DNA from: Elusimicrobiota bacterium
Lineage (GTDB): Bacteria; Elusimicrobiota; Elusimicrobia; UBA1565
Assembly (NCBI GenBank): GCA_043819795.1
Contig: JBDREN010000041.1
Location: forward strand, 1-28,179
Reading direction: 5' to 3'
Length of the DNA stretch: 28,179 nt
The notes beneath the pieces are model-generated. The model was given only the letters and a program-made list of their open reading frames with translations. It had not been told where the DNA came from and ran no database searches. This document shows, in pieces, positions 724 to 15,779 of the stretch (its first letter is position 1; each line of letters begins with the position of its first letter). Made by a program: the position numbers and the translations under genes.

Positions 724-3700
724 ATGAACCGGGCGCGGCTGCTGCTCACCTTCTTTCTCGCCGGCGGGTTCTCCCAGGTCGTGCAGGCCCTCATGGGCCG
801 GGAGATGCTCGTCGTCTTCTACGGCAACGAGATAAGCCTCGGTCTCTTCTACGGCTTCTGGCTGCTCTGGATCGCGGTCGGCAGCTGGGCAGCCGGGAGG
901 CTCGCCGCCGGGCTCCGGCGTCCGCTGACCGCCTTCTCGCTGCTCATGGCGCTCTTGCCCGCGGCTTCGGCCGGCGCCATCCTGCTCCTGCGCGTCTGCC
1001 GCCGCTTCATCGACGTCTCGCCGACGCAGTTCGTCCCGCTCGACCAGCTCGCGTTGTGGAGCCTCGCGGTGACGTTCCCGGTGGGGGTCCTGGTCGGCGC
1101 GGCTTTCCCTCTGGCGTGCCGCGCGCTGAATAAAGAGGAGGATATACCCAGCGTCTACATCTTCGACGCGCTGGGCGGGCTGGCCGGCGGGGCGCTATTC
1201 ACGTTCTTCCTGGTGGACCGGATCTCGGCCTGGCAGACGCTCGGCGCGCTGAGCGCGGCGCTGGGCCTGGCGCTCCTCGCGCTCCCCCGAGGAGAGGGCA
1301 AGGCCGGGCTCTGGATCGGGCGGGCGTTGGGCGCGGCCTGGGCCGTCTGCGGGTTGGCGGTCCTGCTGACGCCGGCGGGCGACCGCCTCACCGCGCGGGC
1401 CGACGCGCTCCGTTGGGGTTCGATCCTGCCGAAGCTCGAGCTCGTCGAGACCTTCGACACGCCGTACCAGAACCTCGCCATCGCCCGGCTCGGTGATCAG
1501 ACCATCGTGGTGGCCGACGGCAAGGTGACGGCCAGCTTTTCTGAGCGGATCGTGCCCGCGGTCCAGGCGTCGCTCCTCTTCGGCCAGCACCCCAAGGCCA
1601 AGCGCGTCCTTCTCGTCGAAGGGGCGGCGGGCGGGCTGATACCCGAGCTGCTCAAGTACCCGGTCGAGAGGATCGACTGCGTCGAGCCGGACGAGCGGGC
1701 TTTCGAGCGGATCCGGGAGCACGTGCCGGCGGACTGGAAGAAGGCGTTCGCCGACAAGCGGGTGCGCTTCCACTTCGCGGACCCGCGGCTGTTCTTCAAT
1801 CGGCTGGCCGACGACGAGGGATACGACCTCATCGTCGTTTTGGTGCCGGATCCGGCCACCGCGAGTCTGAACCGCTTCTTCACCAAGGAGTTCTACGAGG
1901 CCGCGGGCCGGGCGCTCGCGGGCGGCGGGGTATTCATGACGGAGGTGACCTCCGCGTCCAACTACCTGGGGCGCGAGGTGAAGAGCTACAACGCATCGGT
2001 CTACCGGACCCTGCGCGAGGTCTTCGAGGACGTCCGGGTCACGCCGGGGGACTCCAACTATTTCTTCGCCTCGGACAAGAAGGGAAAGCTCACTCTCGAC
2101 CCGGCGGCGCTGGCGCTCCGCTACATGAGCGTCCGGGTCCGCGAGCGCGCCATCCCCCGGGAGGCGTTCTTCTCCATCCTGCCCAAGGACCGCGTGGCCT
2201 TCGTGGAGGGCAGCCTCAAGGAGCAGGGCGGGGAGCTCAATACGGACCTCAGACCGGTCACCTACTACCTGAACATGCTGCTGTGGGGGCGGTTCTCGGG
2301 CTCGGAGTGGGTCGGCGCTCTGGAGACGATCCGGCGCGTCGGCGGACGGTTTTTCCTGCTGCCCCTCGTCATCTTCATCCTTTTTCGGCTGGGCTACGGG
2401 CTCACGGAGGAGGACCGGTCCCGGGAGCGGCGCTTCTCGGCCGGGACCGCGATCGTGGCGCTGGGCTTCACGGCCATGGCGCTGGAGCTCGTGCTGCTGT
2501 TCACGTTCCAGAGCTTCTTCGGCCATATCTACAAGAAGGTGGGGCTGCTCAACGGCTTGTTCATGGCCGGCTTGGCTTCGGGCGCCTTCGCCGCCGTGCG
2601 GGCCGGGGCGGGGCGTTCGGCCGTCCCGGGCCGCTGGCTTTTGGCGGCGGCGGCCGCCGCCGCGGGTTACGCATGGATGCTGCCGCGCCTTCTGGAGCTT
2701 GTCCGGCCGTTGGGCGCGGACGCGGCGGAAGCGGCCTACTGGGGACTGGTGTTCGCGTCGGGGGCGTTCACCGGCGCGGGCTTTCCGCCCGCCGTCCGGC
2801 TCCACCACCGGGGGGCCGGCGACGTGGGGCGGACGTCGGGGGCGATCGACGCGGCGGACCACATGGGCGGCATGCTCGGCGGGCTCGTGACCGGCACCTG
2901 CCTGGTGCCGCTTCTGGGAGTGGAGAGTTCCTGCCGGCTGGCCGCGACCGGGCTCGCCTTGAGCTGCCTGCCTCTGATCCTGCTCGAGCTCAAGGGGGTG
3001 GGCGCGGTCCGCAGCCTGGGAGAGCGGCTTTCCGGACTTCCCGTGCTCCGTTTCCGGGAGCGCGCCTTTGTCTCCTTTCCTCCCCGGCGGACGAGCTGGG
3101 TCCTGGCTGGGCTCGCCGTCACGGTCTGGGCCATGAGCGCCGCGGTCAAGCAGGGGGGGAGGCCCGCTTTGGTGGAGTTCTCCGATGCGGAGCTCACGGG
3201 CGTCACGAGACTGCGGCGCTTCGAGCGCCACGAGGAGCCGTTTCCGTATTACCGCGGCGTGAGCGAGCGGGGGGGCGAGTCGGGGGCCGCGTTCAGCACC
3301 TTCCCGCACTCCTCGGAGGTCAAGGGCTACTCGGGCCCGATCAACCTGCTGCTGGGACTTTCCGGGAAGGGGGAGGTCCTGGGGCTCAAGCTGGTGGAAA
3401 GCCGCGAGACGCCCTCCTACATAGAGGGCATCGACGCCTGGCTCTCGTCCTTCAAGGGACTGGACACCACGGGAACGCTCCGCCTGGGCCGGGAGATCGA
3501 CGCGTTGTCCGGCGCCACGGTGACCTCCCGCGCGGTGGTCGAGATCGTCAACCGCTCCTCCGAGGCGGTGGGCGAGCGCGTCCTGGGGCTGACGGTGCGG
3601 CGCGACCGGGTCCGGCGGCCCTGGACCGAGCCGCTGAAGACGCTCAAGTTCTGGGTCATCGCCGGGTTCCTGGCGCTGTTCTTCCCCGTGTACCTGAAGG

Positions 3701-4383
3701 GCGGCGAGCGGGCGCGCTTCGCCTATCTCGCGGGCGCGGTGTGCGTGATGGGCATCGCGTACAACACGCTCTTCTCGCTGGTGGACATCGCCAACGTCTC
3801 GGAAGGGCGCCTGCCCGGCCCGGACAACGCCGTCTGGTTCGTCCTGGCCGGCTTCATCCTGATCACCTCGCTTCTATGGGGACAGGCGTACTGCGGGTTC
3901 GTATGCCCGTTCGGCGCGCTCCAGGAGCTCCTGTGGAGCCTGGGGCAGCGCGCCGGGCTCAAGTCCTGCGCGATGCGCTGGCTGGACCAGGGCGCGCGCT
4001 ACGTCAAGTTCCTTCTGCTGACGGCGGCCTTATGCCTGTTCTGGATCACGGCCGAGACCGCTTGGATCACCTTCAGCCCGCTGCAGCATTTTTTCGCGTT
4101 GAAATTTTCCAAGGTCATGGCTATCCTAGTGGGGGTGGCGCTGTCCGCGTCGGTGCTGTATTTCCGTTTCTGGTGCCGCTACTTCTGCCCCGCCGGCGCG
4201 TTCCTGGCGCTGTCCAACAAGCTGGCGCTGGCGCGGCGCTGGGCCCCGAAGCGGGAGTTCAGCCTCTGCGATCAGGGCGTGCACGCCGAGTACGACGTGG
4301 ACTGCCTCCAGTGCCAGCGCTGCGTGCATCATCCGGCTTATGCGAGCAAGAACGCCGAGAGTCCTGAGAAAAAGGGATCTTAA
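724..4383 (+). CDS. Multi-pass membrane fusion: spermidine-synthase-like (fused MFS/SpeE-type) region + FMN-binding flavinylation domain + NosR/NapH-like 4Fe-4S membrane domain
   Basis: Many TM helices. SpeE-like motifs (TPYQNL, P..KRVLLVEGAAGG, IDCVEPD, YDLIVVLVPDP, NTDLRP); FMN_bind motifs (GYSGPI, RETPSY, IDALSGATVTS); Cys motifs CGFVCPFG, CRYFCPAG, CLQCQRC. Confidence 0.85.
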   Translation: MNRARLLLTFFLAGGFSQVVQALMGREMLVVFYGNEISLGLFYGFWLLWIAVGSWAAGRLAAGLRRPLTAFSLLMALLPAASAGAILLLRVCRRFIDVSPTQFVPLDQLALWSLAVTFPVGVLVGAAFPLACRALNKEEDIPSVYIFDALGGLAGGALFTFFLVDRISAWQTLGALSAALGLALLALPRGEGKAGLWIGRALGAAWAVCGLAVLLTPAGDRLTARADALRWGSILPKLELVETFDTPYQNLAIARLGDQTIVVADGKVTASFSERIVPAVQASLLFGQHPKAKRVLLVEGAAGGLIPELLKYPVERIDCVEPDERAFERIREHVPADWKKAFADKRVRFHFADPRLFFNRLADDEGYDLIVVLVPDPATASLNRFFTKEFYEAAGRALAGGGVFMTEVTSASNYLGREVKSYNASVYRTLREVFEDVRVTPGDSNYFFASDKKGKLTLDPAALALRYMSVRVRERAIPREAFFSILPKDRVAFVEGSLKEQGGELNTDLRPVTYYLNMLLWGRFSGSEWVGALETIRRVGGRFFLLPLVIFILFRLGYGLTEEDRSRERRFSAGTAIVALGFTAMALELVLLFTFQSFFGHIYKKVGLLNGLFMAGLASGAFAAVRAGAGRSAVPGRWLLAAAAAAAGYAWMLPRLLELVRPLGADAAEAAYWGLVFASGAFTGAGFPPAVRLHHRGAGDVGRTSGAIDAADHMGGMLGGLVTGTCLVPLLGVESSCRLAATGLALSCLPLILLELKGVGAVRSLGERLSGLPVLRFRERAFVSFPPRRTSWVLAGLAVTVWAMSAAVKQGGRPALVEFSDAELTGVTRLRRFERHEEPFPYYRGVSERGGESGAAFSTFPHSSEVKGYSGPINLLLGLSGKGEVLGLKLVESRETPSYIEGIDAWLSSFKGLDTTGTLRLGREIDALSGATVTSRAVVEIVNRSSEAVGERVLGLTVRRDRVRRPWTEPLKTLKFWVIAGFLALFFPVYLKGGERARFAYLAGAVCVMGIAYNTLFSLVDIANVSEGRLPGPDNAVWFVLAGFILITSLLWGQAYCGFVCPFGALQELLWSLGQRAGLKSCAMRWLDQGARYVKFLLLTAALCLFWITAETAWITFSPLQHFFALKFSKVMAILVGVALSASVLYFRFWCRYFCPAGAFLALSNKLALARRWAPKREFSLCDQGVHAEYDVDCLQCQRCVHHPAYASKNAESPEKKGS

Positions 4384-4648
4384 GTTCGTCGCGCTGTGCG
4401 CGGCCACGCTGGCCCTGGTGGGGGTCTACGTCCGGGACTCCCTTCTGGTCAGCGAGACGGCTCAGAGCGGATTCCGCAAGATCGACTTTCCCGCCGTGCG
4501 GCGCATGATCCGCAAGGGGGAGCTCGTGGACCGCGAGGCCATGTACTACCGGGCCGCGGAGGCGCGGCCGGACGAGGCCTTCGGCGGGACGGAAGCCTTC
4601 AACGCCCAGGCCTCGCGGGCAGGTGCCGGCGCGGAGGCGGCGCCGTGA
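4340..4648 (+). CDS. Small single-TM protein with a GELVDREAMYY motif (exact start uncertain)
   Basis: Overlaps the upstream stop. Its TGA overlaps the GTG start of the radical SAM gene (GTGA at 4645-4648). Basic N-terminus followed by a hydrophobic helix; normal codon usage. Confidence 0.7.
   Translation: MRARTPRVLRKRDLKFVALCAATLALVGVYVRDSLLVSETAQSGFRKIDFPAVRRMIRKGELVDREAMYYRAAEARPDEAFGGTEAFNAQASRAGAGAEAAP
4555..4639 (+). repeat. Dispersed repeat copy 1 (core 4584-4620), flanked by a 10-bp direct repeat
   Basis: 4584-4620 matches 13277-13313 at 33/37 nt, the first 23 identical. CGCGGAGGCG occurs at 4555-4564 and 4630-4639, 75 nt apart. Confidence 0.7.
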
Positions 4649-5628
4649 AAAGGGACGTGGTATGCGAGCTCTGCCCCAAGGAGTGCCGGATCCCGGAGGG
4701 CGCGGCCGGCGATTGCCGGGTGCGCGTCAACATGGGCGGCAAGCTCAGGGCGACGACTTACGCGCGGCCGAGCTCCGTCCACATCGACCCCATCGAGAAG
4801 AAGCCTCTTAACCACTTTCTGCCCGCTTCGCGCATATTCTCGATCGCCACGGCGGGCTGCAACCTGCACTGCCGGAACTGCCAGAACTGGCAGCTCTCCC
4901 AGCGCGACGGCGCGCAGATGGAGATGCGCTACCGGGCGGACCCCAAGGACGTGGTGGACGCGGCGATCCGGACCAAGTGCCCATCGATCGCCTACACGTA
5001 CTCGGATCCGGTCGTCTATTACGAGTACGCCTACGACGCGTCCCGGCTCGCCCGGGAGAAAGGCCTGAAGAACGTGCTCGTGACCGCGGGCTATATCAAC
5101 CGGAAGCCGCTCAAGAGGCTGCTGCGGTACATCGACGCGACCAATACGGACCTGAAGTACTTCGAGGACGCCCCTTACCGGAAGTACAGCGATGGGAGCC
5201 TCCAGCCCGTCCTCGATTGCCTGGTCACGCAGAAGGAGATGGGCGTGTGGCTCGAGGTCACGAACCTCGTCATCCCGACCCTGAACGACGATATGGCCAT
5301 GATCCGGCGCATGGCCAAGTGGATGGTCTCGAACCTGGACGAGGACACCCCTCTTCACTTCAGCCGGTTCTTCCCCCAGTACCAGATGCGGAACCTGCCC
5401 TCCACGCCGGTGGCGACCCTGCTTCGGGCGCGCAGCGAGGCGCTCGACGCGGGGCTCAAGTACGTGTACATCGGCAATATGCACGGCCACCCGGCGGAGT
5501 CGACGATCTGCCCCACCGACGGCAAGGTCGTCGTGCGGCGCATCGGCTATCATGTGCCGGAGATCCACATCAAGGACGGCAGGTGCGAATACTGCAAGAC
5601 GCCCATCGCAGGGAGGTGGAGCTTATGA
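4645..5628 (+). CDS. amrS: AmmeMemoRadiSam system radical SAM enzyme (327 aa)
   Basis: GTG start with SD GGAGG at 4633-4637. Motifs CELCPKEC, IDPIEKKPL.HF, GCNLHCRNCQNW (CxxxCxxC), HFSRFFP.Y, YVYIGN, C-terminal Cys pairs. Confidence 0.92.
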   Translation: MKRDVVCELCPKECRIPEGAAGDCRVRVNMGGKLRATTYARPSSVHIDPIEKKPLNHFLPASRIFSIATAGCNLHCRNCQNWQLSQRDGAQMEMRYRADPKDVVDAAIRTKCPSIAYTYSDPVVYYEYAYDASRLAREKGLKNVLVTAGYINRKPLKRLLRYIDATNTDLKYFEDAPYRKYSDGSLQPVLDCLVTQKEMGVWLEVTNLVIPTLNDDMAMIRRMAKWMVSNLDEDTPLHFSRFFPQYQMRNLPSTPVATLLRARSEALDAGLKYVYIGNMHGHPAESTICPTDGKVVVRRIGYHVPEIHIKDGRCEYCKTPIAGRWSL

Positions 5629-5792
5629 CGACGGAAGGAGGAGGGCGTGTGTCGCGCAAGGGCTTCCTCGCGCGGCTCGCCGCGGGGGCGGCGGCCCTGC
5701 TGGGCGGCGTTCATTTCGGGCGAGCGGGACGGGAACACGATAGGGACCTGCGCGAGGCCGACTTCTACTCCCCGCACGACCTGGCGGGCTGA
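5625..5792 (+). CDS. 55-aa peptide with a twin-arginine-like N-terminus (SRKGFL) and C-terminal LREADFYSPHDLAG
   Basis: SD GGAGGTG, ATGA overlap with the amrS stop, and TGATG overlap with the next gene. It fills the gap between the two genes exactly. Confidence 0.75.
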   Translation: MTTEGGGRVSRKGFLARLAAGAAALLGGVHFGRAGREHDRDLREADFYSPHDLAG

Positions 5793-7396
5793 TGGCGGCC
5801 AAGCGCGCTCCCAAGGCGTCCGCCGCTCCGGCGCTTTTGCCTGTCGCCGTCCTGTTGTTGATCCCGCTCCTCGTCCATTGCGAGCGGGACAAGCGGCCCG
5901 CCGCGGGCTCGTCCGGCGAGACGTCTCCGGCCGCGTCCGCCCGCGTGCGGCGCAGCCCCTTGGCCGGATCCTGGTACCTCGGCGACGCGGGCAAGCTGCG
6001 CGCCCGTCTCGGCCTCTATCTCGAGCGGGCCGGGAAACCGCGGCTCAAGGGAAGGCCCCTCGCTCTGGTGTCTCCCCACGCGGGCTTCCGGTACTCGGGA
6101 CAGGCCGCGGCCTACGGATTCAAGGCGCTCGAGGGCCGGGACATCCGCCGGGTGGTCGTCTTGGGAGTGAGCCACCGATACCCCTTCCCGGGAGCCTCCG
6201 TCCCCGCCTTCGACCACTACGAGACGCCGCTCGGCCGCGTGCCGGTGGATCGGGAAGCCGCGGACCGGCTGCTCAAGCATCGGCTCTTCGCCTCGCGGTC
6301 CAAGGTCCATGAGGAGGAGCACTCCATCGAGATTCAGCTACCCTTCCTCCAAGTCGTGCTCCCCGAAGGCTTCTCGATCGTGCCGGTGGTCTTCAGCTCG
6401 CTCGATCGCGCCGATTACGCCCCCGCGGCCCGCGAGATACGCAGGTTCGTGGACGACCGGACGGTCGTGGTGGCGAGCTCGGACTTCGTTCATTACGGGA
6501 AACGGTTCGGGTACGCCCCCTTCGAGCGCGAGATACCCCGGAATATCGAGGCTCTGGACCGGGAGGCCATCCAAGCCATCGTGAAAAAGGATTTCGCCGC
6601 CTTCTACGAGCACCACGAACGCACCGGCGCCACGATCTGCGGCCGCGTTCCCATCGGCGTGCTCTTGAACCTTCTTCCGGAGGGTTCGCGGGGCACGCTC
6701 CTGCGCTACTACCGCTCGGGCGAGCTGACCGGGGAGTGGGACGGTTCGGTGAGCTACGCTTCCATCCTGTTCACGGACGGGGCGGGGACGGGCGGGGAGC
6801 CGGACGTCTCGTTCGCGGGCGCCGAGCGCGAGAGCCGCCTGGCGGCGATGCTCAAGCCCGATGAGCAGGGTGAGATCCTGGCGCTGGCGCGCGCCACCGT
6901 GGAGGCGTACGTACGCGAGAAGAAGGCCCCGTCCACCGAGGCCCTGATGGAGAGGGTGAAGGCGGGCCTCAAGAAGGTCATGGGAGTGTTCGTGACCCTG
7001 CGCAAGCACGGCCGTCTGAGGGGCTGCATCGGCAGCATCGTGGGGGTCGAGCCGCTCTACGAGGGAGTGGTCCGCAACGCGGTCAACGCCTGCGCGTTCG
7101 ATCGCCGCTTCAAGCCCGTGACGGCCGATGAGCTGGGCGACATCGAGGTCGAGGTGTCCGTGCTGAGCCCGCTGCGGCGCGTGGAGGGCTATCATAGGAT
7201 CCTGCCCGGCTGGCACGGCGTCGTGCTCAGGAAGGGGGGCAGGTCGGCGGTCTTCCTGCCCCAGGTCGCCATGGAGAACCATTGGGACGTCGAGGAGACC
7301 CTGACGCATCTGGCGCGCAAGGCGGGTCTGGCGGCCGATGCCTGGAAGTCGGAAGCCGAGTTCCACGTGTTCGAGGCGCAGATCATCCCCGAGTAA
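5792..7396 (+). CDS. amrB: Fused AmmeMemoRadiSam protein B (MEMO1-like) and protein A (AMMECR1) with an N-terminal signal or lipoprotein-like leader
   Basis: MEMO motifs AGSWY, PHAG..YSG, GVSH, EHSIEIQLPFL, SSDFVHYG, TICG, VSYAS. AMMECR1 motifs GVFVTL, LRGCIG, D.RF, EVSVLS, FLPQVA. Leader VAVLLLIPLLVHC. Confidence 0.92.
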   Translation: MAAKRAPKASAAPALLPVAVLLLIPLLVHCERDKRPAAGSSGETSPAASARVRRSPLAGSWYLGDAGKLRARLGLYLERAGKPRLKGRPLALVSPHAGFRYSGQAAAYGFKALEGRDIRRVVVLGVSHRYPFPGASVPAFDHYETPLGRVPVDREAADRLLKHRLFASRSKVHEEEHSIEIQLPFLQVVLPEGFSIVPVVFSSLDRADYAPAAREIRRFVDDRTVVVASSDFVHYGKRFGYAPFEREIPRNIEALDREAIQAIVKKDFAAFYEHHERTGATICGRVPIGVLLNLLPEGSRGTLLRYYRSGELTGEWDGSVSYASILFTDGAGTGGEPDVSFAGAERESRLAAMLKPDEQGEILALARATVEAYVREKKAPSTEALMERVKAGLKKVMGVFVTLRKHGRLRGCIGSIVGVEPLYEGVVRNAVNACAFDRRFKPVTADELGDIEVEVSVLSPLRRVEGYHRILPGWHGVVLRKGGRSAVFLPQVAMENHWDVEETLTHLARKAGLAADAWKSEAEFHVFEAQIIPE

Positions 7397-7433: not shown

Positions 7434-10400
7434 ATGCTTACCGTCCAGTACGGTCCGTTCCAGCCGGCCCTGGAGCGTGCCTTCCTCGCCGAGCTTGACG
7501 CGGTCAAGAAGGCCGACCCGTTGGCGCCCGCGGCGGTCGTGGCTCCCTCGCGCCGGATGGCGGACCGCCTGCAGCGCCTGGTCGCCTGCGAGGCGGGGCG
7601 AGCCTGCCTTCAGGTCGAGTTCCATACCTTCTACAGCCTGGCTCTCGAGATCGTGCGGGAGAGCGGGACGCTGGACCGGAGCGTGGTGGGCGACCCCATG
7701 TTCTTCGACAGGCTTCTCGACGACCTGCTCGCGTCCCATGCCGAAGGAGCGCAATCCCGTCCCCGCGGCCTGTCGGCATCCTACCGGTCCAGCCTCAAGG
7801 ACCTCATCGACGCCGGGGTGGAGCCACGGGCCGCGGACCTGCTCGATGAGGGGCTTCTCGACGACGCGTACGAGGCGGAGCGTTTCAGGCGGCTGCTGGC
7901 GGTCCTGCGGCGCTACGAGGAGCGCATGGACGAGCTGCGGGTGACGCCGGTCTCGGGGCTCACGCGGCGGGCGACCGAGGCGGCCTCCGCGTCTCCGGTG
8001 CTCCGGCGCTACCGAGCGATCCTCTACTACGGGTTCTACGATCTCACGGGACTTCAGGCCGATTTCTTCGAGGCGGTCGCGAAGGACTATCCCGTCACGC
8101 TCTTCTATCCCTACCGGAAGGGGCATCCGGGCTATTCCTTCTGTGACCGGTTCTTCGAGACCAAGCTCCATCTTGGCGGCCGCACGCCGCGGGCCCTCGA
8201 CGGCGGGGGCGAGGGCCGCGCGTTGGGCAAGGCCCTGGACGCGCTCTTCGTCCCGGGCGCGGAGGGGAGCGTCGCGGACGGAGCGCTCCGGTTCTTCACG
8301 GCCTCGGGAGCCCGCGACGAATCTTGGCGCGTGGCCAAGGAGGTGCTCCGGCTCGTCGAGGAGGAAGGCTACGCCCACGGCGAGATAGGCGTCGTGGCCC
8401 GCGCCCTCGATCCGTACCGGACGGCCGTCACCGAGGCGTTCGAGGAGTCCTGCATCCCGTTCCATATGAGCGCCGAGGAGCCGCTCCTGCGGCGGCCCGC
8501 GGCCCGGATGTGCCTGAAGCTGCTTACTCTGGCTCGGCGCGATTTCCCCGCGCTGGCCGTCCTGGACCTGACCGAATCGCCGTTCTTCAAGGGCCGGCGG
8601 GGCAGGTTTTGGAGGACGCTGGTGCGCCGGCTCCGCGTCCATCGCGGTTGGATGCAGTGGGAAGGCAAGCTCCTTCCCGCGACCCGTGCGGACTTCGAGC
8701 TCTATCCCCAGCTCGCGGCCGAGGGACGGCGGGGGACCGTGGTCCCTCAAGAGCAGTCTCGGGCGCTCTGGGACCTGCTCTGCGAGTGGCGCCGGCGCCT
8801 GACGCCCCCGGAGCGCCGGCGATGGTCCGAATGGGCGGATTACGCGTGCGATTTCCTTCGCGAGCACCTAGACGGGAAAGGGGATCCCGGTTTCGAGGAG
8901 GCCCTCGGCGGCCTCGACGGCCTGCGGGTATTCGACCTCCTGGGCGAGCCGGCGACGTTCGACGAGTTCCTCGACGCGGCAGAGGATCGCCTGACCCGGG
9001 CCGGCCGTCCGGTCGGGGGGGCGGAGGGGAGCGGGGTGCGCGTCCTCGACGCGATGGAGGCCCGCGGGGAATCGTTCCGCGCGCTCTTCCTGGTCGGCAT
9101 GCGGGAGGGCCTCTTCCCTAGGACGATACGGGAGGACCCGCTGCTGCGCGACTCGGCGCGCGCCGCCCTGCGCGAGACCGGCGGCTACTGGATCGCGGCG
9201 AAGCAGGCCGCCTACGACGAGGAGAAGCTGCTCTTCACTCTGCTGGCGGGGTCCGTCTCCGAGCGCCTCTACTGCTCCCACCCGCGCTCGGACGAGGAGG
9301 GGCGGGCGCAGATCCCCTCGATCTATCTCCTGGACCTCTGCCGGGCGGCGGGAGTCCGTCTCTCGCAGGCCGAGCTCAGCGAGCGCGTCCCGCGTCAGCC
9401 GGAGCGCAAGCTGACCCTCCCTCATCTGGCCCCCTACCTGACGCCGAAGGAGGCCTCGGTGGCGGCCGCTTTGACGCGGACCGGATCCCGCGCCCTTTAC
9501 CGGGCCCTCGGCTGGGACGCGGACGGCTACGAGGCTCTGGCGCGGCGCGTGGCCGACATGAACCGCCGCGGCGGACCGGGTCCCTACGACGGGTTAGTGG
9601 GTCCTCCGGCGGAATACCTGGGCGAGCTGCGCCGGCGGGGCCTGTCTCCCTCCGCGCTGGCGATCCTCGCGCGCTGTCCGTTCCAGTTCTACTCCTCGCG
9701 CGTGCTCGGGCTGGAAGAGCCCGAGGAGCCTTGCCCCAGCGGCGAGGTATCCCCCGCCGTGAAGGGGGACATCTATCACGGCGTGCTGTCCCGCTTCTAC
9801 AGGCGCTTGCGGCGGGAGGGCTTCTGGCGGCGCGAGCGGGCGGCGTTCCCGGAGCCGGCGCTGCGGGCCGCGGAGGACGAGGTCTTCGCCGCCTACGGGT
9901 GGCGGGAGCTCGGGGTCTACCCCCTGCTGTGGGACATCACGCGGGAGGGGATGCGCGGCCACCTGCGCGTCTTCCTTCAGCGGGACCTCCGGGAGCTCGG
10001 CGAGTCGGGGATGCGGCCGGAGCTGTTCGAGGAACCCATGGAGTCGCCCCTCGCCGTAGGGCTGCCCGAGGCTCTTAGGGGGATGCCCTTCCAGGGCCGG
10101 GCCGACCGGGTGGATGTCGGCGGCGGCTCGTTTCGCGTCGTGGACTACAAGTCCCGCTGGAGGAGACACGAGAAACTCGAGGCCCTGGTCCGCAAGGGCG
10201 AGACCTTCCAGCCGCCGGTGTACCTGGAGCTCGCCGCGCGGCATCCGCGGCTGAAGGAGGATGAGCCCGGCGGCGTCCGCTTCTGCGCTATCGAGGATGG
10301 GCCCGAGACCAACGGGCGCCCATGGGTCCACGAATACGGAGCCGACGCCCACCGTCGGAGCCGGGAAGCCCTGTTCGAGGAGCTTTCCCGCCTCGCGGGG

Positions 10401-10532
10401 ACGGTGAGCCTCGGGAAGTTCCTCATCCGTCCGGACGAGGGGGCCCACGGCCATTGCCGCTGGTGTCCGTTCGGCGCCCTCTGCCGCAAGAGCCATCCCA
10501 TGACGCTGATACGCAGCGCGGAGGCCCGATGA
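7434..10532 (+). CDS. addB: AddB/RexB-like helicase-nuclease subunit with a C-terminal PD-(D/E)XK domain (1032 aa)
   Basis: Degenerate helicase scaffold (GFYDLT.LQ, GMREG.FP), LSPS...CPFQF, GRADRVD...VVDYKS, and C-terminal CRWCPFGALC, giving a four-Cys Fe-S arrangement. Coupled to the addA-like gene. Confidence 0.85.
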   Translation: MLTVQYGPFQPALERAFLAELDAVKKADPLAPAAVVAPSRRMADRLQRLVACEAGRACLQVEFHTFYSLALEIVRESGTLDRSVVGDPMFFDRLLDDLLASHAEGAQSRPRGLSASYRSSLKDLIDAGVEPRAADLLDEGLLDDAYEAERFRRLLAVLRRYEERMDELRVTPVSGLTRRATEAASASPVLRRYRAILYYGFYDLTGLQADFFEAVAKDYPVTLFYPYRKGHPGYSFCDRFFETKLHLGGRTPRALDGGGEGRALGKALDALFVPGAEGSVADGALRFFTASGARDESWRVAKEVLRLVEEEGYAHGEIGVVARALDPYRTAVTEAFEESCIPFHMSAEEPLLRRPAARMCLKLLTLARRDFPALAVLDLTESPFFKGRRGRFWRTLVRRLRVHRGWMQWEGKLLPATRADFELYPQLAAEGRRGTVVPQEQSRALWDLLCEWRRRLTPPERRRWSEWADYACDFLREHLDGKGDPGFEEALGGLDGLRVFDLLGEPATFDEFLDAAEDRLTRAGRPVGGAEGSGVRVLDAMEARGESFRALFLVGMREGLFPRTIREDPLLRDSARAALRETGGYWIAAKQAAYDEEKLLFTLLAGSVSERLYCSHPRSDEEGRAQIPSIYLLDLCRAAGVRLSQAELSERVPRQPERKLTLPHLAPYLTPKEASVAAALTRTGSRALYRALGWDADGYEALARRVADMNRRGGPGPYDGLVGPPAEYLGELRRRGLSPSALAILARCPFQFYSSRVLGLEEPEEPCPSGEVSPAVKGDIYHGVLSRFYRRLRREGFWRRERAAFPEPALRAAEDEVFAAYGWRELGVYPLLWDITREGMRGHLRVFLQRDLRELGESGMRPELFEEPMESPLAVGLPEALRGMPFQGRADRVDVGGGSFRVVDYKSRWRRHEKLEALVRKGETFQPPVYLELAARHPRLKEDEPGGVRFCAIEDGPETNGRPWVHEYGADAHRRSREALFEELSRLAGTVSLGKFLIRPDEGAHGHCRWCPFGALCRKSHPMTLIRSAEAR

Positions 10533-13500
10533 GCGTCGCCCTCCCCGACGCCCGGGACCGCGACCTCGCTCGGCTGGACGTCACGCGCAGCGTGATCGTC
10601 GAGGCCGGGGCCGGGACCGGAAAGACGACGCTTCTCATCGACCGCATCGTGTTCCTCCTGCTCGGGAGGCGCGGCAAGGAGGGGGGCCTCGACGTGGCGC
10701 GGCTGGTCGCGCTCACGTTCACGGAGAAGGCCGCCTCGGAGATCAAGTTCCGCCTGGCCGAGCGCCTCAACCAGCTCGCCTCGCTCGTCGAGGGCCGTTC
10801 GCTGGACGGGGCCGAGGGCCCCGCCGCCGAGCGCTGCCTGCACGACCTGCGGACCCGCTTCCGCCGCGAGCCGAAGGATATCCGGGAGCTGGCGCAGCGG
10901 GCCCTGCGCGACCTGGAGCGCGCCCAGATCGGAACCATCCATTCCTTTTGCTCGCATCTTCTGCGCCTGTATCCTCTCGAGGCGGGAGTCGACCCCGAGT
11001 TCCGCGTCGACGCCGGAGAGGAGGCGCTCGACGACCTGTTCGAGAGCGAGTGGGCGCAATGGCTCGACCGGGAGCTCGGACAGGACCCGCCCCGCCCCGG
11101 GCTCTGGCGCCGCGTCCTCGGCTCCGCGGCCGGGGGAGGCGGCGTCTCTCTTGAGGACGTGCGGGACCTGGCGCGGGGACTCATCGGCCCGCGGGTGGAT
11201 ATGCAGGACGTTTCCTTGGGCGGACGGCGGGTGGCCGGGCGCCTGCGCGCCTTGGGGGAGCGGGCGGCCCGGCTCGGCGAGGGGCGGGAGAAGCCTCGGG
11301 GGCGCGTCCTGGAGCACCTCGCGTGGATGAGCTCCCGGTTCTCGGCCGCGGCCGACGCGGTCGAGGGGAAGGCGGCGGTCGCCGACACGCCGCCGTGCGC
11401 GAAGGCGCCCAAGTGGCCCGCCAACTGGGACGCCGACGGCGAGCCGCAGTACGAGAGTCTCTCGCGGATCGTCCGGCGCGTCGAGCCGCGCCACGAGGCG
11501 ATGTTCCGCGACGCGTTCGAGCTTCTGGCCCCGTTCGTGGCCGGGTTCCGGGCCGCCTACCGCCGCCGCGGCTGGATCACGTTCGACGGCCTGCTTACGT
11601 CCGCGCGGGACCTCGTCCGCGACCATCCCCGCGTCCGGTCCGAGCTCAAGCGCCGCCTGGGGGCAATCCTCATCGACGAGTTCCAGGACACCGACCCGCT
11701 GCAGGGCGAGCTTCTCATGTTCCTAGGCGAGTCCCGGGCTGGCGCGGCCAAGAGCTGGCGGGACATACGCCTCGAACCCGGGAAGCTGTTCATCGTCGGC
11801 GACCCGAAGCAGTCCATCTACCGATTCCGCGGCGCCGACATCGCGGCAGCGGAGTCCTTCACGGCCCATCTTGAAGGGCAGGGCGCGCTGCGCTGCGCGC
11901 TGCAGACGAACTTCCGGAGCCAGGCCGGCCTAGTGAACGCGATCAACCGCGTGTTCGACGCCGTGATGCGTCCGGCGGCCGGCCTTCAGCCCGCGTACCT
12001 GCCGATCAGCCCGGCGCCGGACCGGCCGGCGCGCGGCGGACCGGAGTGGATCCAAGTCGTCGCGCCCTCCGCCGAGCCGGACCGGAAGGTCTCGGCCGAC
12101 GAGAGCCGCCGCGCGGAGGCGGGCTGGATCGCCCGCTGGATCCGCGAGGATCGCGGCGGATACGAGTACCGTGAGGTCGCGGTGGTGCTGCGCAGCACCT
12201 CGGCCTTATCGGTCTATCTGGAGGCCCTCAAGCGCGCCGACATCCCCTACGTCGTGGAGGGGGAGAAGTACTTCTACGGGACGCAGGAGGTCGTGGACTT
12301 CCTCAACCTTCTGCGCGCGATCGACGACCCCTCCGACCGCATCGCGCTCGCGGGGCTCCTGCGTTCGCCGCTCGTCGCGCTCGAGGACCGGGAGATCTAC
12401 CGCCTGTGTCGAGGCGGAGGGCTCGACTACCGCAAGCGGGCGCCCGGGAGGAAGGTCGCGGCCGCTCTTGAGCCCTTCTTCGGGATGCTGCGCCGCTTCC
12501 ATGAGCGCGCGGGCCGCGAGCCGCTCGGCGACCTGATGCGCGCGGTCCTGCGCGACACCTTCCTAGTGGAGCTCTGCGCCCAGGCGTACCATCACCAGCA
12601 GACGGCCTCGAACCTGCTCAAGTTCGGCCGCTTGGCGGCCGAGTCCTGTGACCGGGGGGCGACGCTCAAGGAGTTCATTGAGACGGTCTCACTCTCGATG
12701 AAGGACTTCCGGGAGGAGGGGGAAAGCCCTCTGGCCGACGAAGATTTCGACGCCGTCCGCGTGCTCACGATCCATAAGGCCAAGGGGCTGGAGTATCCCG
12801 TAGTCATCCTGCCGAACCTCTCGGGGGGGACGCAGGGCGGCCCGTCGGAGGACGCCGCGCGCGTGGGGTGGTCGGACGGCATAGTGGGGCTGCGCATGGG
12901 CGGCGCCGGCGCCGCCAACGCCGCGATGGCTCTGCTCGATGAGGAGGAGCTGCGTCGCCAGCGGGAGGAGGAGGTCCGCGTCCTCTACGTCGCCATGACG
13001 CGTTCGAAAGAACGGCTGATGCTTCTCGGGAGCACCACTCGTCGCGGCGCGTCGTTCGCCTCCCTGCTCGACGCGGCCGGGTGCCTGGCCAGCCGGGAGC
13101 TGCCCCTCGATAGCGTGGAGGCGGGAGGCGGGGGCGGCCGGCGGAGGCCGGCCACCGGGTGGAAGGCTCCTGATCCGGCGAGGCTGGCCGCCGACTGGAA
13201 GAGGCGCCGGGAACGCTGCGCCGCGGTCCAGGAGAAGGCCCTATTCACCCATCCTACCGAGCGGCGGGACGGGGACGCGGGACGGAAGCCTTCAACGCCT
13301 GGGCCCCGCGAGCGTGGGCGCGGGGGAGACCGGCCGGCCGGGCCCGATGGGCCGCCTCGAAGCTCCGCGCCGCGCGCCGCTCTGCTCGGAAGGCTGTGCC
13401 ACGAGGCGCTCGAGCGCTGGGATTTCCGGACCGGCCGGCCGGTGCCGGCGGGCGGGGACGCTGGGCGGGATCCTTCCCCAGCCGGGTCCCGCGAGCATGG

Positions 13501-13906
13501 GCTCGCGGGGCTGCGGCGCCTGATCGCGCGCCGAGCGGAGCTTCTGAGCCGCGAGGAGCCGCAGGCCGACCGCGCGGGCCTTGAGGAGGAATGCGAGCGG
13601 ATCGTGGGCGGGTTTCTCCGCTCGAGCGCGGCCCGGGAGCTGGCCGCCTGCGAGATACTCGGCCGGGAGATCCCGTTCCTGTACGCGGAGGACGGGCAGG
13701 TGGTCCGCGGCAAGATCGACGTGCTGTACAGGAAGGGGAAGGGTCTGATCGTCGCCGACTACAAGACCGATCGGGTGCGCGGCAAGGAGAGGGCGAAGCT
13801 CGCGGCGAAATACGCGCGGCAGGGCCGCTTCTACGTCCGGGCCGTCGAGCGCGCTATGGGCCTGAAAGGGATCAAGTTCAAGGCCGTATTCCTGAGGAGC
13901 GCATGA
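10529..13906 (+). CDS. addA: AddA/UvrD-family ATP-dependent helicase-nuclease (1125 aa)
   Basis: ATGA overlap with SD GGAGG. Motifs AGAGTGKT, LTFTEKAA.E, TIHSF, IDEFQDT, VGDPKQSIYRFRGAD, TIHKAKGLE, LYVAMTR; nuclease G.ID...DYKT. Confidence 0.9.
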   Translation: MSVALPDARDRDLARLDVTRSVIVEAGAGTGKTTLLIDRIVFLLLGRRGKEGGLDVARLVALTFTEKAASEIKFRLAERLNQLASLVEGRSLDGAEGPAAERCLHDLRTRFRREPKDIRELAQRALRDLERAQIGTIHSFCSHLLRLYPLEAGVDPEFRVDAGEEALDDLFESEWAQWLDRELGQDPPRPGLWRRVLGSAAGGGGVSLEDVRDLARGLIGPRVDMQDVSLGGRRVAGRLRALGERAARLGEGREKPRGRVLEHLAWMSSRFSAAADAVEGKAAVADTPPCAKAPKWPANWDADGEPQYESLSRIVRRVEPRHEAMFRDAFELLAPFVAGFRAAYRRRGWITFDGLLTSARDLVRDHPRVRSELKRRLGAILIDEFQDTDPLQGELLMFLGESRAGAAKSWRDIRLEPGKLFIVGDPKQSIYRFRGADIAAAESFTAHLEGQGALRCALQTNFRSQAGLVNAINRVFDAVMRPAAGLQPAYLPISPAPDRPARGGPEWIQVVAPSAEPDRKVSADESRRAEAGWIARWIREDRGGYEYREVAVVLRSTSALSVYLEALKRADIPYVVEGEKYFYGTQEVVDFLNLLRAIDDPSDRIALAGLLRSPLVALEDREIYRLCRGGGLDYRKRAPGRKVAAALEPFFGMLRRFHERAGREPLGDLMRAVLRDTFLVELCAQAYHHQQTASNLLKFGRLAAESCDRGATLKEFIETVSLSMKDFREEGESPLADEDFDAVRVLTIHKAKGLEYPVVILPNLSGGTQGGPSEDAARVGWSDGIVGLRMGGAGAANAAMALLDEEELRRQREEEVRVLYVAMTRSKERLMLLGSTTRRGASFASLLDAAGCLASRELPLDSVEAGGGGGRRRPATGWKAPDPARLAADWKRRRERCAAVQEKALFTHPTERRDGDAGRKPSTPGPRERGRGGDRPAGPDGPPRSSAPRAALLGRLCHEALERWDFRTGRPVPAGGDAGRDPSPAGSREHGLAGLRRLIARRAELLSREEPQADRAGLEEECERIVGGFLRSSAARELAACEILGREIPFLYAEDGQVVRGKIDVLYRKGKGLIVADYKTDRVRGKERAKLAAKYARQGRFYVRAVERAMGLKGIKFKAVFLRSA
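13270..13319 (+). repeat. Dispersed repeat copy 2, in frame inside addA
   Basis: 33/37 nt match to 4584-4620 and 39/50 nt match to 13453-13502. Confidence 0.7.
13453..13510 (+). repeat. Dispersed repeat copy 3 (diverged), in frame inside addA
   Basis: 39/50 nt ungapped match to copy 2. Ends in a perfect hairpin, CCCGCGAGC-ATGG-GCTCGCGGG (13488-13509). Confidence 0.6.
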
Positions 13907-14658
13907 CCGAGGAACGCACGATCGAGGAGAGTATGACCGCGAGAACTTTCGGGCTGGTCGGGCTCTGCCTGCTGCTCGCGGCGGCGTTGGTCCTGGGCTA
14001 CGTGGCGTGGCTGCCGGATGTCTCGGACCTCGAGTCCAAAAATCCGATGACCACGCAGTACGTGCGGATCTACGTCCGCCGCATGCTCCGCAAGGGAGAA
14101 CGTCCCGTCACGGCGATGCGCTGGGTGCGGCTCGAGGAGATATCGCCGTATCTGCGCCGCGGCGTCCTGATCGCGGAGGACGACCGCTTCTACCAGCACC
14201 ACGGGGTGGACTGGGTCGCGTTCAAGGAGGCGGTCCGCTACAACCTCAGCAAGCGGCAGCTCGCTCGCGGGGCCAGCACGATCACCCAGCAGGTGGCGAG
14301 AAACCTGTTCCTGTCGCCCGAACGGAGCCCGGTCCGGAAGCTCAAGGAGCTCCTGATCGCGCGTCACCTCGAGCGCTCGCTCGGCAAGGAGCGCATCCTC
14401 GAGATCTACCTCAACATCGTGGAGTGGGGAGAGGGCGTCTTCGGCGCCGAGGCGGCGAGCCTCGTCTATTTCGGCAAGCACGCCTCCGAGCTCACGCCGG
14501 AAGAGGCCGTCGCGCTGGCGGCCGCCCTGCCGAGCCCGTACGAGCGGCATCCCGGCGTGCCACCGGACGAGCGCATGCGGAAGCTCCGGGACCTCTATCT
14601 GGAGCGCATGCGCGCGGCGGGCTATGTCCCGGAGAGGACGGCGGCCGACCGGCCTTGA
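13903..14658 (+). CDS. mtgA: Monofunctional peptidoglycan transglycosylase (GT51)
   Basis: ATGA overlap with addA (alternative start at 13933). N-terminal TM; motifs EDDRFYQHHGVD, GASTITQQVARNL, RKLKE, KERILEIYLN; no transpeptidase domain. Confidence 0.92.
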   Translation: MTEERTIEESMTARTFGLVGLCLLLAAALVLGYVAWLPDVSDLESKNPMTTQYVRIYVRRMLRKGERPVTAMRWVRLEEISPYLRRGVLIAEDDRFYQHHGVDWVAFKEAVRYNLSKRQLARGASTITQQVARNLFLSPERSPVRKLKELLIARHLERSLGKERILEIYLNIVEWGEGVFGAEAASLVYFGKHASELTPEEAVALAAALPSPYERHPGVPPDERMRKLRDLYLERMRAAGYVPERTAADRP

Positions 14659-14720
14659 GCGCCCCGCCGATAAAGGGGATGGACCTCTCCCGGCAATATT
14701 GAGCATAATATCCGTCAGCC

Positions 14721-15779
14721 ATGCTTGATTTCTTATTCGGGCTCTTCTCCAACGACATGGGCGTCGATCTGGGCACGGCCAATACGCTGGTCTGCGTCAG
14801 GGAGAAGGGCATCGTGCTGCGCGAACCTTCCGTGGTCGCCCTCGATAGGGAGACCCGGCAGGTGCTGGCCGTGGGCACCGAGGCCAAGAGGATGCTCGGC
14901 CGCACCCCGGACTCGATCGTCACGGTGCGGCCTCTCAAAAACGGCGTCATCGCGGACTTCGAGGTGACGCAGCAGATGATCAAGTATTTCATCCGCAAGG
15001 TGCACAACCGCAGCAGCCTGCTCCACCCGCGGATCGTCGTCAGCGTCCCCTCCGGGATCACGGAAGTGGAGCGGCGCGCGGTGCAGGAGTCGGCGGAGCA
15101 GGCCGGGGCCCGCGAGGTGTTCATCATCGACGAGGCGATGGCCTCGGCCATCGGGGCCGACCTGCCGGTTTCGGAGCCGCACGCGAGCATGATCCTCGAC
15201 ATCGGGGGCGGAGCGGCCGAGGCGGCCGTCATCTCGCTGGGCGGCATGGTCGTCTCGAAGTGCATCGGGATCGCCGGAGACGAGTTCGACGAGGCGATCC
15301 AGCAGTACCTCCGGCGCAAGCACAACCTCATCATCGGGGAGACGACCGCCGAGAACATCAAGATCCGCATCGGCTCGGTATTCCCCCTGAAGGAGGAGAT
15401 GACGCTCGAGGTCAAGGGGCGCGATCAGGCCGGCGGGCTGCCCAAGACCGTCATCATCAGCTCCGAGGAGGTCCGGCAGGCGTTCAAGGAGCCGATCACG
15501 ATCATCCTCGACATGGTCAAGGACGCGCTGGAAGAGACCCCGGCCGAGCTTTCGGCGGACCTCGTGGACCGCGGCATCGTTCTCGCCGGCGGGGGGGCCC
15601 TGATCCGGGGCCTGCCCGAGCTCATCCGCCAGGAGACCGAGCTGCCGGTGCAGCGCGCGGAGGACCCGCTGACCACCGTGGCCATCGGCACGGGGCGCTA
15701 CCTCGAGATCCTCGACGAGCTGGATCACAGCAAGAGGATCAGCCTCTCCCGGGCGCGGGGCTCGCTCAACCGCCAGTGA
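14721..15779 (+). CDS. mreB: Rod shape-determining protein MreB (variant phosphate-2 loop)
   Basis: Motifs [62 protein letters not shown]. Confidence 0.95.

Follow-up and report, generated by a model that had tools for sequence, protein, structure and literature searches.

A predicted outer-face radical-SAM machine of the AmmeMemoRadiSam family in an Elusimicrobiota operon

The AmmeMemoRadiSam family brings together a Memo protein (AmrB), an AMMECR1 protein (AmrA) and a radical S-adenosylmethionine (SAM) enzyme (AmrS). PMC2034487 describes the association of these genes and a Memo-AMMECR1 fusion, and proposes RNA base modification. Here, we analyse a five-gene operon of this family at positions 724-7396 of a 28,179-nt stretch of DNA (the window) from an Elusimicrobiota bacterium (UBA1565; GCA_043819795.1, contig JBDREN010000041.1). 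AmrS, AmrB and AmrA of the window all pass their family cut-offs, and their motifs are intact. Unlike the described family members, the AmrB-AmrA fusion carries a leader, the first strand of AmrS is placed on two small membrane-targeted proteins (g2 and g4), and the operon has a dedicated membrane partner (g1), in which an MFS unit, a spermidine-synthase-like (SpdS-like) domain, a flavin mononucleotide (FMN)-binding domain and a NapH-like module are joined. We put the probability at about two in three that the operon encodes a radical-SAM machine of the outer face, in which AmrS binds g4, the carrier of its missing strand, and is co-exported through the twin-arginine translocation (Tat) pathway.

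Other described systems resemble parts of this locus. NosR and PceC/RdhC, as presented in PMC8238504, PMC5928378 and PMC12052999, share with g1 the transmembrane (TM) helices, the FMN domain with its ApbE motif, and a membrane module with two CxxxCP motifs. In g1, however, this arrangement is fused behind a 14-helix MFS-SpdS unit and has one CxxCxxC motif instead of two, and a radical SAM enzyme takes the place of the respiratory reductase as its partner. The Tat hitchhikers hydrogenase and formate dehydrogenase (PMC10924467) are comparable to AmrS and g4, in that a signal-less Fe-S protein stands beside a twin-arginine partner, with binding predicted here. In our operon, by contrast, the putative escort of 55 aa has been split off from the N-terminus of its own passenger, and the strand occurs a second time, on a membrane anchor. 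SpeE and the 'fused MFS/spermidine synthase' proteins (PRK03612, NF037959) share the fold (Z 27.4) and the acidic nucleoside-binding residues with g1, whereas g1 lacks the GGGDG Asp and the catalytic Asp, falls below all cut-offs, and has this domain predicted outside the membrane. The locus is a member of the AmmeMemoRadiSam family that can be likened both to a NapH-like flavinylated conduit and to a Tat hitchhiker pair. It is not a NosR, nor is it a spermidine synthase. We found no published account of this operon in a search that did not take in Burroughs et al. 2019 (JBC 294:10211, which may mention exported forms) or the cluster table of PMC8238504.

The operon consists of five open reading frames, all on the forward strand:

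724..4383, + strand: g1, membrane fusion of 1219 aa with about 20 predicted TM helices (Pfam PF01564, PF04205, PF12801; topology analysis)
4340..4648, + strand: g2, single-TM protein of 102 aa with a predicted outward REAMYY strand (4532-4549), putative membrane dock for AmrS
4645..5628, + strand: amrS, radical SAM enzyme of 327 aa with a GTG start, CxxxCxxC at 4858-4881 and no leader (TIGR04337)
5625..5792, + strand: g4, 55 aa, with a Tat-like signal SRKGFL (5652-5669) and a READFY strand (5751-5768), putative export escort of AmrS that would complete its N-terminal sheet
5792..7396, + strand: amrB-amrA fusion of 534 aa, with a hydrophobic leader, Cys30 (LVHC at 5870), Memo at residues 53-327 and AMMECR1 at residues 362-531

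A preliminary description of this DNA had reported five genes joined by overlaps including GTGA, ATGA and TGATG. All three were located (4645-4648, 5625-5628 and 5790-5794), and the first junction, between g1 and g2, is longer, with an overlap of 44 nt. The same description had asked for a survey of amrS neighbourhoods for the fusion gene, and in this survey the fusion gene is kept beside amrS in other genomes. Homologues of g1 numbered 308 among 8000 candidates scored, with Elusimicrobiota as the nearest named relatives. The genome scan confirmed 217 stretches, of which 79 loci were kept; the g2 and g4 counts over 80 include the window itself. These 79 loci span Elusimicrobiota, many Gammaproteobacteria, Magnetococcales, Desulfobacterota, Verrucomicrobiota, Planctomycetota and Myxococcota, and many of them are related Gammaproteobacteria, so that locus counts are not independent. 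Within 10 kb of g1, amrS is found in 64/79 loci, amrB in 60/79 and amrA in 56/79. Seven of the 15/79 loci without a linked amrS have less than 2.5 kb of downstream sequence, and where g1 is unlinked the genome has a split-type amrS at another site, as in L022 and in 8/8 further genomes tested. Neighbour clustering across loci gave no other common partner beyond close kin, and no nos genes are among the conserved neighbours.

AmrS scores 378.9 bits against TIGR04337 (cut-off 220), and the match starts at profile position 11, with positions 1-10 missing. The protein begins only a few residues before its first Cys, without a leader and without the first strand (EAxxY). The best 120 AmrS homologues contain none longer than 330 aa. 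In contrast to canonical, cytoplasmic AmmeMemoRadiSam systems, this locus has an exported-type leader on AmrB-AmrA and an AmrS lacking its own EAxxY-type strand. Related AmrS proteins begin with a leader followed by an EAxxY/W strand; among 30 loci of the same phylum, most of these leaders are Sec-type and two are Tat-type. In a sister clade, which was found via a stand-alone MFS-SpdS protein and from which the best 80 of 586 confirmed loci were taken, RRxF and EAxFY occur in cis in 35/35 visible AmrS N-termini. The predicted model of one natural Tat-AmrS has the EAxFY strand integrated in the fold. In a tree of 125 AmrS proteins, built by a quick method with a midpoint root, the split forms make one branch (SH-aLRT 96) within a group supported at 100; one member, L083, was wrongly labelled 'split', and L084 is a frameshifted long branch. 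This group holds the split, Tat-leader, Sec-leader and two signal-less forms, with canonical AmrS outside. There is no solved AmrS structure in the PDB; among solved structures, PFL activating enzymes come closest in fold, and one of these is peptide-bound.

The separate gene after amrS, g4, encodes a leader and a strand of the AmrS type. By hidden Markov model, g4 was found in 51/80 loci. A pattern search found it in 48/60 loci, compared with 32/1580 random control positions. In the predicted complex of AmrS with g4, residues 43-48 of g4 are packed on residues 5-9 and 33-36 of AmrS, the N-terminal sheet. This model reaches an ipSAE of 0.87 (best control 0.00), a mark that is reached by 116/157 solved pairs and 2/215 mismatched pairs. 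The runs agree on at least 94% of contacts, with a partner pLDDT of at least 72. Halves of split genes tend to pass this mark, so the score indicates strand complementarity and not export. When TIGR01409 was applied to 7 g4 proteins, 1 scored above the cut-off, 3 came near and 3 gave no match, including the window copy. By eye, Desulfobacterota g4 shows a divergent RRxF with an AMF strand in 8/9 loci shown, and the ninth has the RR part only. TatC was found in 9/9 genomes that carry g4 or a Tat leader, and tatC is present in the window's own genome.

Meanwhile, g2 combines a membrane anchor with the same EAxxY-type strand that AmrS lacks. It was found by hidden Markov model in 71/80 loci, with 513 representatives among the hits, and its profile matches that of g4 (E 1e-4). 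Fusion of g2 to g1 occurs in 11/201 family proteins. In 9 of them an extra helix comes before the g2 part, whereas in 2 (P0241 and P0048) it stands directly behind the FMN domain without a TM helix between. These fusions, above all those directly to the FMN domain, place the g2 strand on the FMN side, which is predicted to be the outer one. Among the best 150 of the 513 g2 hits, 13/14 long ones are g1-type. Taken together, the sister-clade AmrS with signal and strand in cis, the predicted AmrS-g4 binding and the g2 fusions suggest that the two small proteins provide the exit of the signal-less AmrS. Neither g4 nor g2 has a named family in the protein atlas.

The preliminary description had also noted two small targeting-type proteins, which are borne out as genes by g2 and g4 homologues at matching positions and by substitutions that favour third codon positions. 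Differences at third positions number 171 versus 83/64 at the others for g2, and 73 versus 28/35 for g4, indicating that both are coding. We considered whether the small reading frames arose by chance; the conserved homologues, this codon-position pattern and the g4 pattern counts given above rule this out. A frameshift joining g2 to amrS is also ruled out, as the same split is seen in different phyla with spacers that vary, the 120 best AmrS homologues all have at most 330 aa, and g2 stays by g1 where amrS is divergent.

Within g1, Pfam places a spermidine-synthase domain at residues 288-408 (PF01564), an FMN-binding domain at 868-944 (PF04205) and a membrane module (PF12801). The protein can be divided as follows:

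724..2994, + strand: residues 1-757, predicted MFS fold of two six-helix halves with two extra helices flanking the insert (AlphaFold model)
1378..2346, + strand: spermidine-synthase-like domain of SAM-binding fold, predicted on the outer face (structure match, alignment, bias of lysine and arginine)
3325..3555, + strand: FMN-binding domain with the ApbE motif DALSGAT (3499-3519), Thr932 as the predicted FMN site, predicted outside (Pfam, motif)
3643..4323, + strand: NapH/NosR-like membrane module with two CxxxCP and one CxxCxxC, predicted cytoplasmic (Pfam, NCBIfam, topology)

Two features go beyond the preliminary description: the MFS unit with a spermidine-synthase-like domain in residues 1-760 of g1, and the absence of an export signal from AmrS itself. 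The AlphaFold model of residues 1-770 has a pLDDT of 93.5. Over residues 1-760 it has the 12-helix, two-domain MFS fold, as compared by VIA-align with VMAT2 (Z 28.4, root-mean-square deviation 3.9, 350 aligned), SotB (Z 27.1) and NorA (Z 25.9). Superimposing the model on spermidine synthase 1uir gave Z 27.4 with a root-mean-square deviation of 2.9 over 278 aligned residues. This alignment starts at approximately residue 99 of g1, in the loop that joins helices 3 and 4 and that the predicted topology places outside. The domain keeps acidic nucleoside-binding positions (D353 in 44/44 homologues, E321 in 27/44), whereas the aminopropyltransferase Asp residues are lost: position 302 is Ala in 34/44 and Asp in 1/44, and position 374 is Asp in 6/44. 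We take the GGGDG Asp and the Asp before DP, at these two positions, as defining aminopropyl transfer. Against TIGR00417 g1 reaches 65.9 bits, far from the cut-off of 249.55. The inserted domain is therefore better read, from its residues, as a putative SAM-binding or other-transferase domain than as a spermidine synthase. The earlier suggestion that the membrane protein perhaps handles SAM or its by-products gains a structural basis, an MFS fold with a predicted outward domain of SAM-binding type.

Hydropathy over 44 g1 homologues gives 20 helices. Taking the N-terminus as inside, the short inner loops are richer in lysine and arginine than the outer ones in 44/44 sequences, a bias that predicts an outside position for the SpdS-like and FMN domains and an inside one for the Cys motifs. 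The preliminary description located an SGAT motif at 3508-3519 and NosR/NapH-type Cys motifs in this protein. Both are there: SGAT lies within DALSGAT, and the Cys motifs are CxxxCP at 3892-3909 and 4174-4191 and CxxCxxC at 4303-4323, with their Cys residues invariant in 44/44. The ApbE motif, as defined in PMC12052999, is canonical in 139/150 long g1-family members. With the PF12801 module, the FMN domain and D-x-x-[S/T]-G-A-[S/T], g1 has the make-up of the NapH-like flavinylated proteins. It does not belong to NosR itself, as it scores 75.1 against a NF046105 cut-off of 1000 bits and has one CxxCxxC. The FMN domain of PceC, homologous to that of g1, is shown to face outward in PMC5928378. 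The apbE gene, for which a survey of the amrS neighbourhood had been proposed, is present in the window's own genome and in 4/5 and 5/5 further genomes, yet unlinked.

AmrB scores 220.8 bits against TIGR04336 (cut-off 26) and AmrA 163.8 bits against TIGR04335 (cut-off 99), both NCBIfam. The RGCxG and DxRF motifs of AmrA each occur in 55/56, and the Memo motifs in 56-59/60. By threshold, the Memo domain has a hydrophobic leader in front of it in 56/60 loci, with two of the four misses borderline; where amrB stands next to a canonical amrS in these same genomes (L112-114, L243, L246), its product has none. A MEMO1-AMMECR1 fusion with a signal or lipobox-like leader had been claimed. The fusion and the hydrophobic leader are confirmed; LVHC is an atypical lipobox, a Cys follows the hydrophobic region in a few relatives, and most homologues have leaders of AxA type. 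The FMN domain and AmrB-AmrA are both predicted to be extracytoplasmic, which favours the periplasm-facing arrangement proposed earlier. Two of the trio have human relatives: MEMO1 matches AmrB at E 1e-40, and AmrB-type matches lie in the 34-37% range.

On this basis we propose the following course. AmrB-AmrA, with its leader sequence, would be exported by Sec. AmrS would gain its Fe-S cluster in the cytoplasm, bind the EADFY strand of g4 as in the predicted complex, and hitchhike through Tat. Outside, the REAxWY strand of g2 may take the same groove of AmrS, which, with g2 as a subunit of the g1 complex, would bring AmrS beside the FMN domain. Going by the likeness to NosR and PceC, the NapH-like module would move electrons from inside to the ApbE-attached FMN and on to the AmrS cluster. 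The MFS part, judged by its fold, might bring SAM and take back by-products, while the outer SAM-binding domain could hold SAM or perform a follow-up group transfer. Our estimate of two in three covers the course up to this point, in outline. Finally, we speculate that AmrS together with AmrB/AmrA modifies an envelope-bound substrate, most likely a membrane lipid or a membrane-anchored molecule, a tentative guess that we would sooner doubt than accept. The stronger picture, in which the operon is a self-contained periplasmic radical-SAM factory made up of a SAM exporter, a flavin/Fe-S wire across the membrane, an external Memo-AMMECR1 and an AmrS whose first strand is split into two interchangeable parts, a Tat escort and a membrane dock by the flavin, falls a little short of an even chance.

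Under this reading the operon appears to encode the three needs of an outside radical SAM enzyme, namely an export route, a SAM supply and electrons, and the idea can be tested directly. What the Memo/AMMECR1/radical-SAM trio does has long been open, and the predicted outer location narrows the choice; for this branch, it argues against an RNA substrate and points to envelope substrates. The stronger picture, if correct, would mean radical-SAM chemistry outside the cytoplasm, together with proteins that are exported and docked by strand exchange. An escort that consists of a detached strand would be Tat hitchhiking in a minimal form. No radical SAM enzyme known to us has been demonstrated to act outside the cytoplasm, and literature phrase searches for one found nothing.

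Several observations weigh against an exported AmrS, and some of them fit an unlikely alternative in which AmrS stays cytoplasmic, tethered to the inner face by g2 and g4, with only AmrB-AmrA and the FMN domain outside and the MFS unit shuttling an intermediate. AmrS has no signal of its own, SAM and Fe-S assembly sit in the cytoplasm, and the radical SAM enzymes known to us are all cytoplasmic. The twin arginine, RR in 34/36 aligned g4, reads RK in the window copy, and the g4 of L208 reads RSR. No g4 was found after the split amrS of L234 (where amrB directly follows), L237 and L006. L122 and L124, in which AmrS has the strand in cis but no signal, fall inside the 'exported' group of the tree. 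Among genomes with Sec-type AmrS leaders, 6/24 have a TatC match and 18/24 have none; it is difficult to see how an Fe-S enzyme would leave by Sec, and these leaders may therefore be anchors. The topology is weakened by TM boundaries set by eye, and the best 150 of 513 g2 hits include no direct fusion of g2 or g1 to AmrS. The complex score may reflect what the prediction model learned from intact AmrS sequences, and profile comparisons with the AmrS N-terminus fall on the strand but are weak (g4 E 0.0067, g2 E 0.027). What speaks against a cytoplasmic AmrS is the position of the g2 motif, straight on the FMN domain in 2 fusions and in 9 behind an extra TM helix past the cytoplasmic ferredoxin motif, which places the strand outside, together with the in-cis Tat signals of sister AmrS (35/35).

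The small proteins could instead be peptide substrates of AmrS, g4 or g2 or both, with an exported modified peptide as the product. We take their ExxxY to be PqqA-core-like, the peptide-bound PFL activating enzyme fits such a role, and many loci conserve an HDLAG end of g4. However, the predicted contact is at the N-terminal sheet and not at the SAM barrel, relatives carry the motif as the first strand of the enzyme itself, and HDLAG is absent from tubeworm-symbiont and Desulfobacterota g4s; we regard this explanation as very improbable. Somewhat less remote, though still improbable, is a machine that is exported but works mainly by SpdS-like, SAM-dependent group transfer or extracellular nucleoside salvage, with the FMN/NapH part merely fused and serving another periplasmic acceptor. 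MFS-SpdS is indeed the more constant partner and the FMN module is clade-specific: no FMN-binding domain matched in 80/80 sister-clade loci. This absence, like the loss of the NapH part from P0241 and P0048, also counts against the exported-AmrS reading. NapH-like modules are described as modular in PMC8238504. Against this stand g2, which physically ties the AmrS strand to the FMN/NapH module, the unconserved aminopropyltransferase Asp residues, and a different, NapH/NapG-like polyferredoxin upstream of the sister Tat-AmrS in 11/80 loci. A Tat-DUF362 protein lies upstream in 29/80 (for example L185:12757-16006), many contigs being too short to show either neighbour, and DUF362 may be an alternative periplasmic electron carrier. 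A sister clade with these proteins and no FMN domain suggests that an electron supply is needed yet interchangeable.

Variants of the layout were also seen. In L022 and L119 (G153) the operon is in two pieces, g1 with amrBA apart from g2-amrS-g4, the latter approximately 11 kb from tatC. In ten Desulfobacterota loci (L036, L037, L051, L053, L054, L056, L059, L065, L076 and L079), amrS-g4-amrBA is mostly divergent from g1-g2, and the common downstream genes include ones that, by eye, encode a rhodanese-type protein with CxxCH and an SPFH-type protein. In L229:3416-6622 (G166), P0241 and P0048, g1 ends without the NapH module, with the g2 motif directly after the FMN domain. At L061:1198-2217 and L018:13998-14976, one amrS is joined to g4 by an in-frame deletion and the other is frameshifted; an assembly error is possible. 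Sec-type AmrS leaders without twin arginines are found in many Elusimicrobiota (L085, L097, L103, L106 and others; G135, G091, G073, G067).

Another AmrS, which has a Tat signal of its own and an insert with CxxCH, is encoded in the window's own genome (G000:C200:2-1252, L230). The same genome has a canonical amrS that is frameshifted; short repeats and one more radical SAM gene come after it (G000:C71:47344-49687). Rfam gave 0 matches. Downstream of the operon, at 7434-15779, lie an addB/addA-type helicase-nuclease pair, a monofunctional transglycosylase and mreB, which are ordinary genes and are not conserved with the operon.

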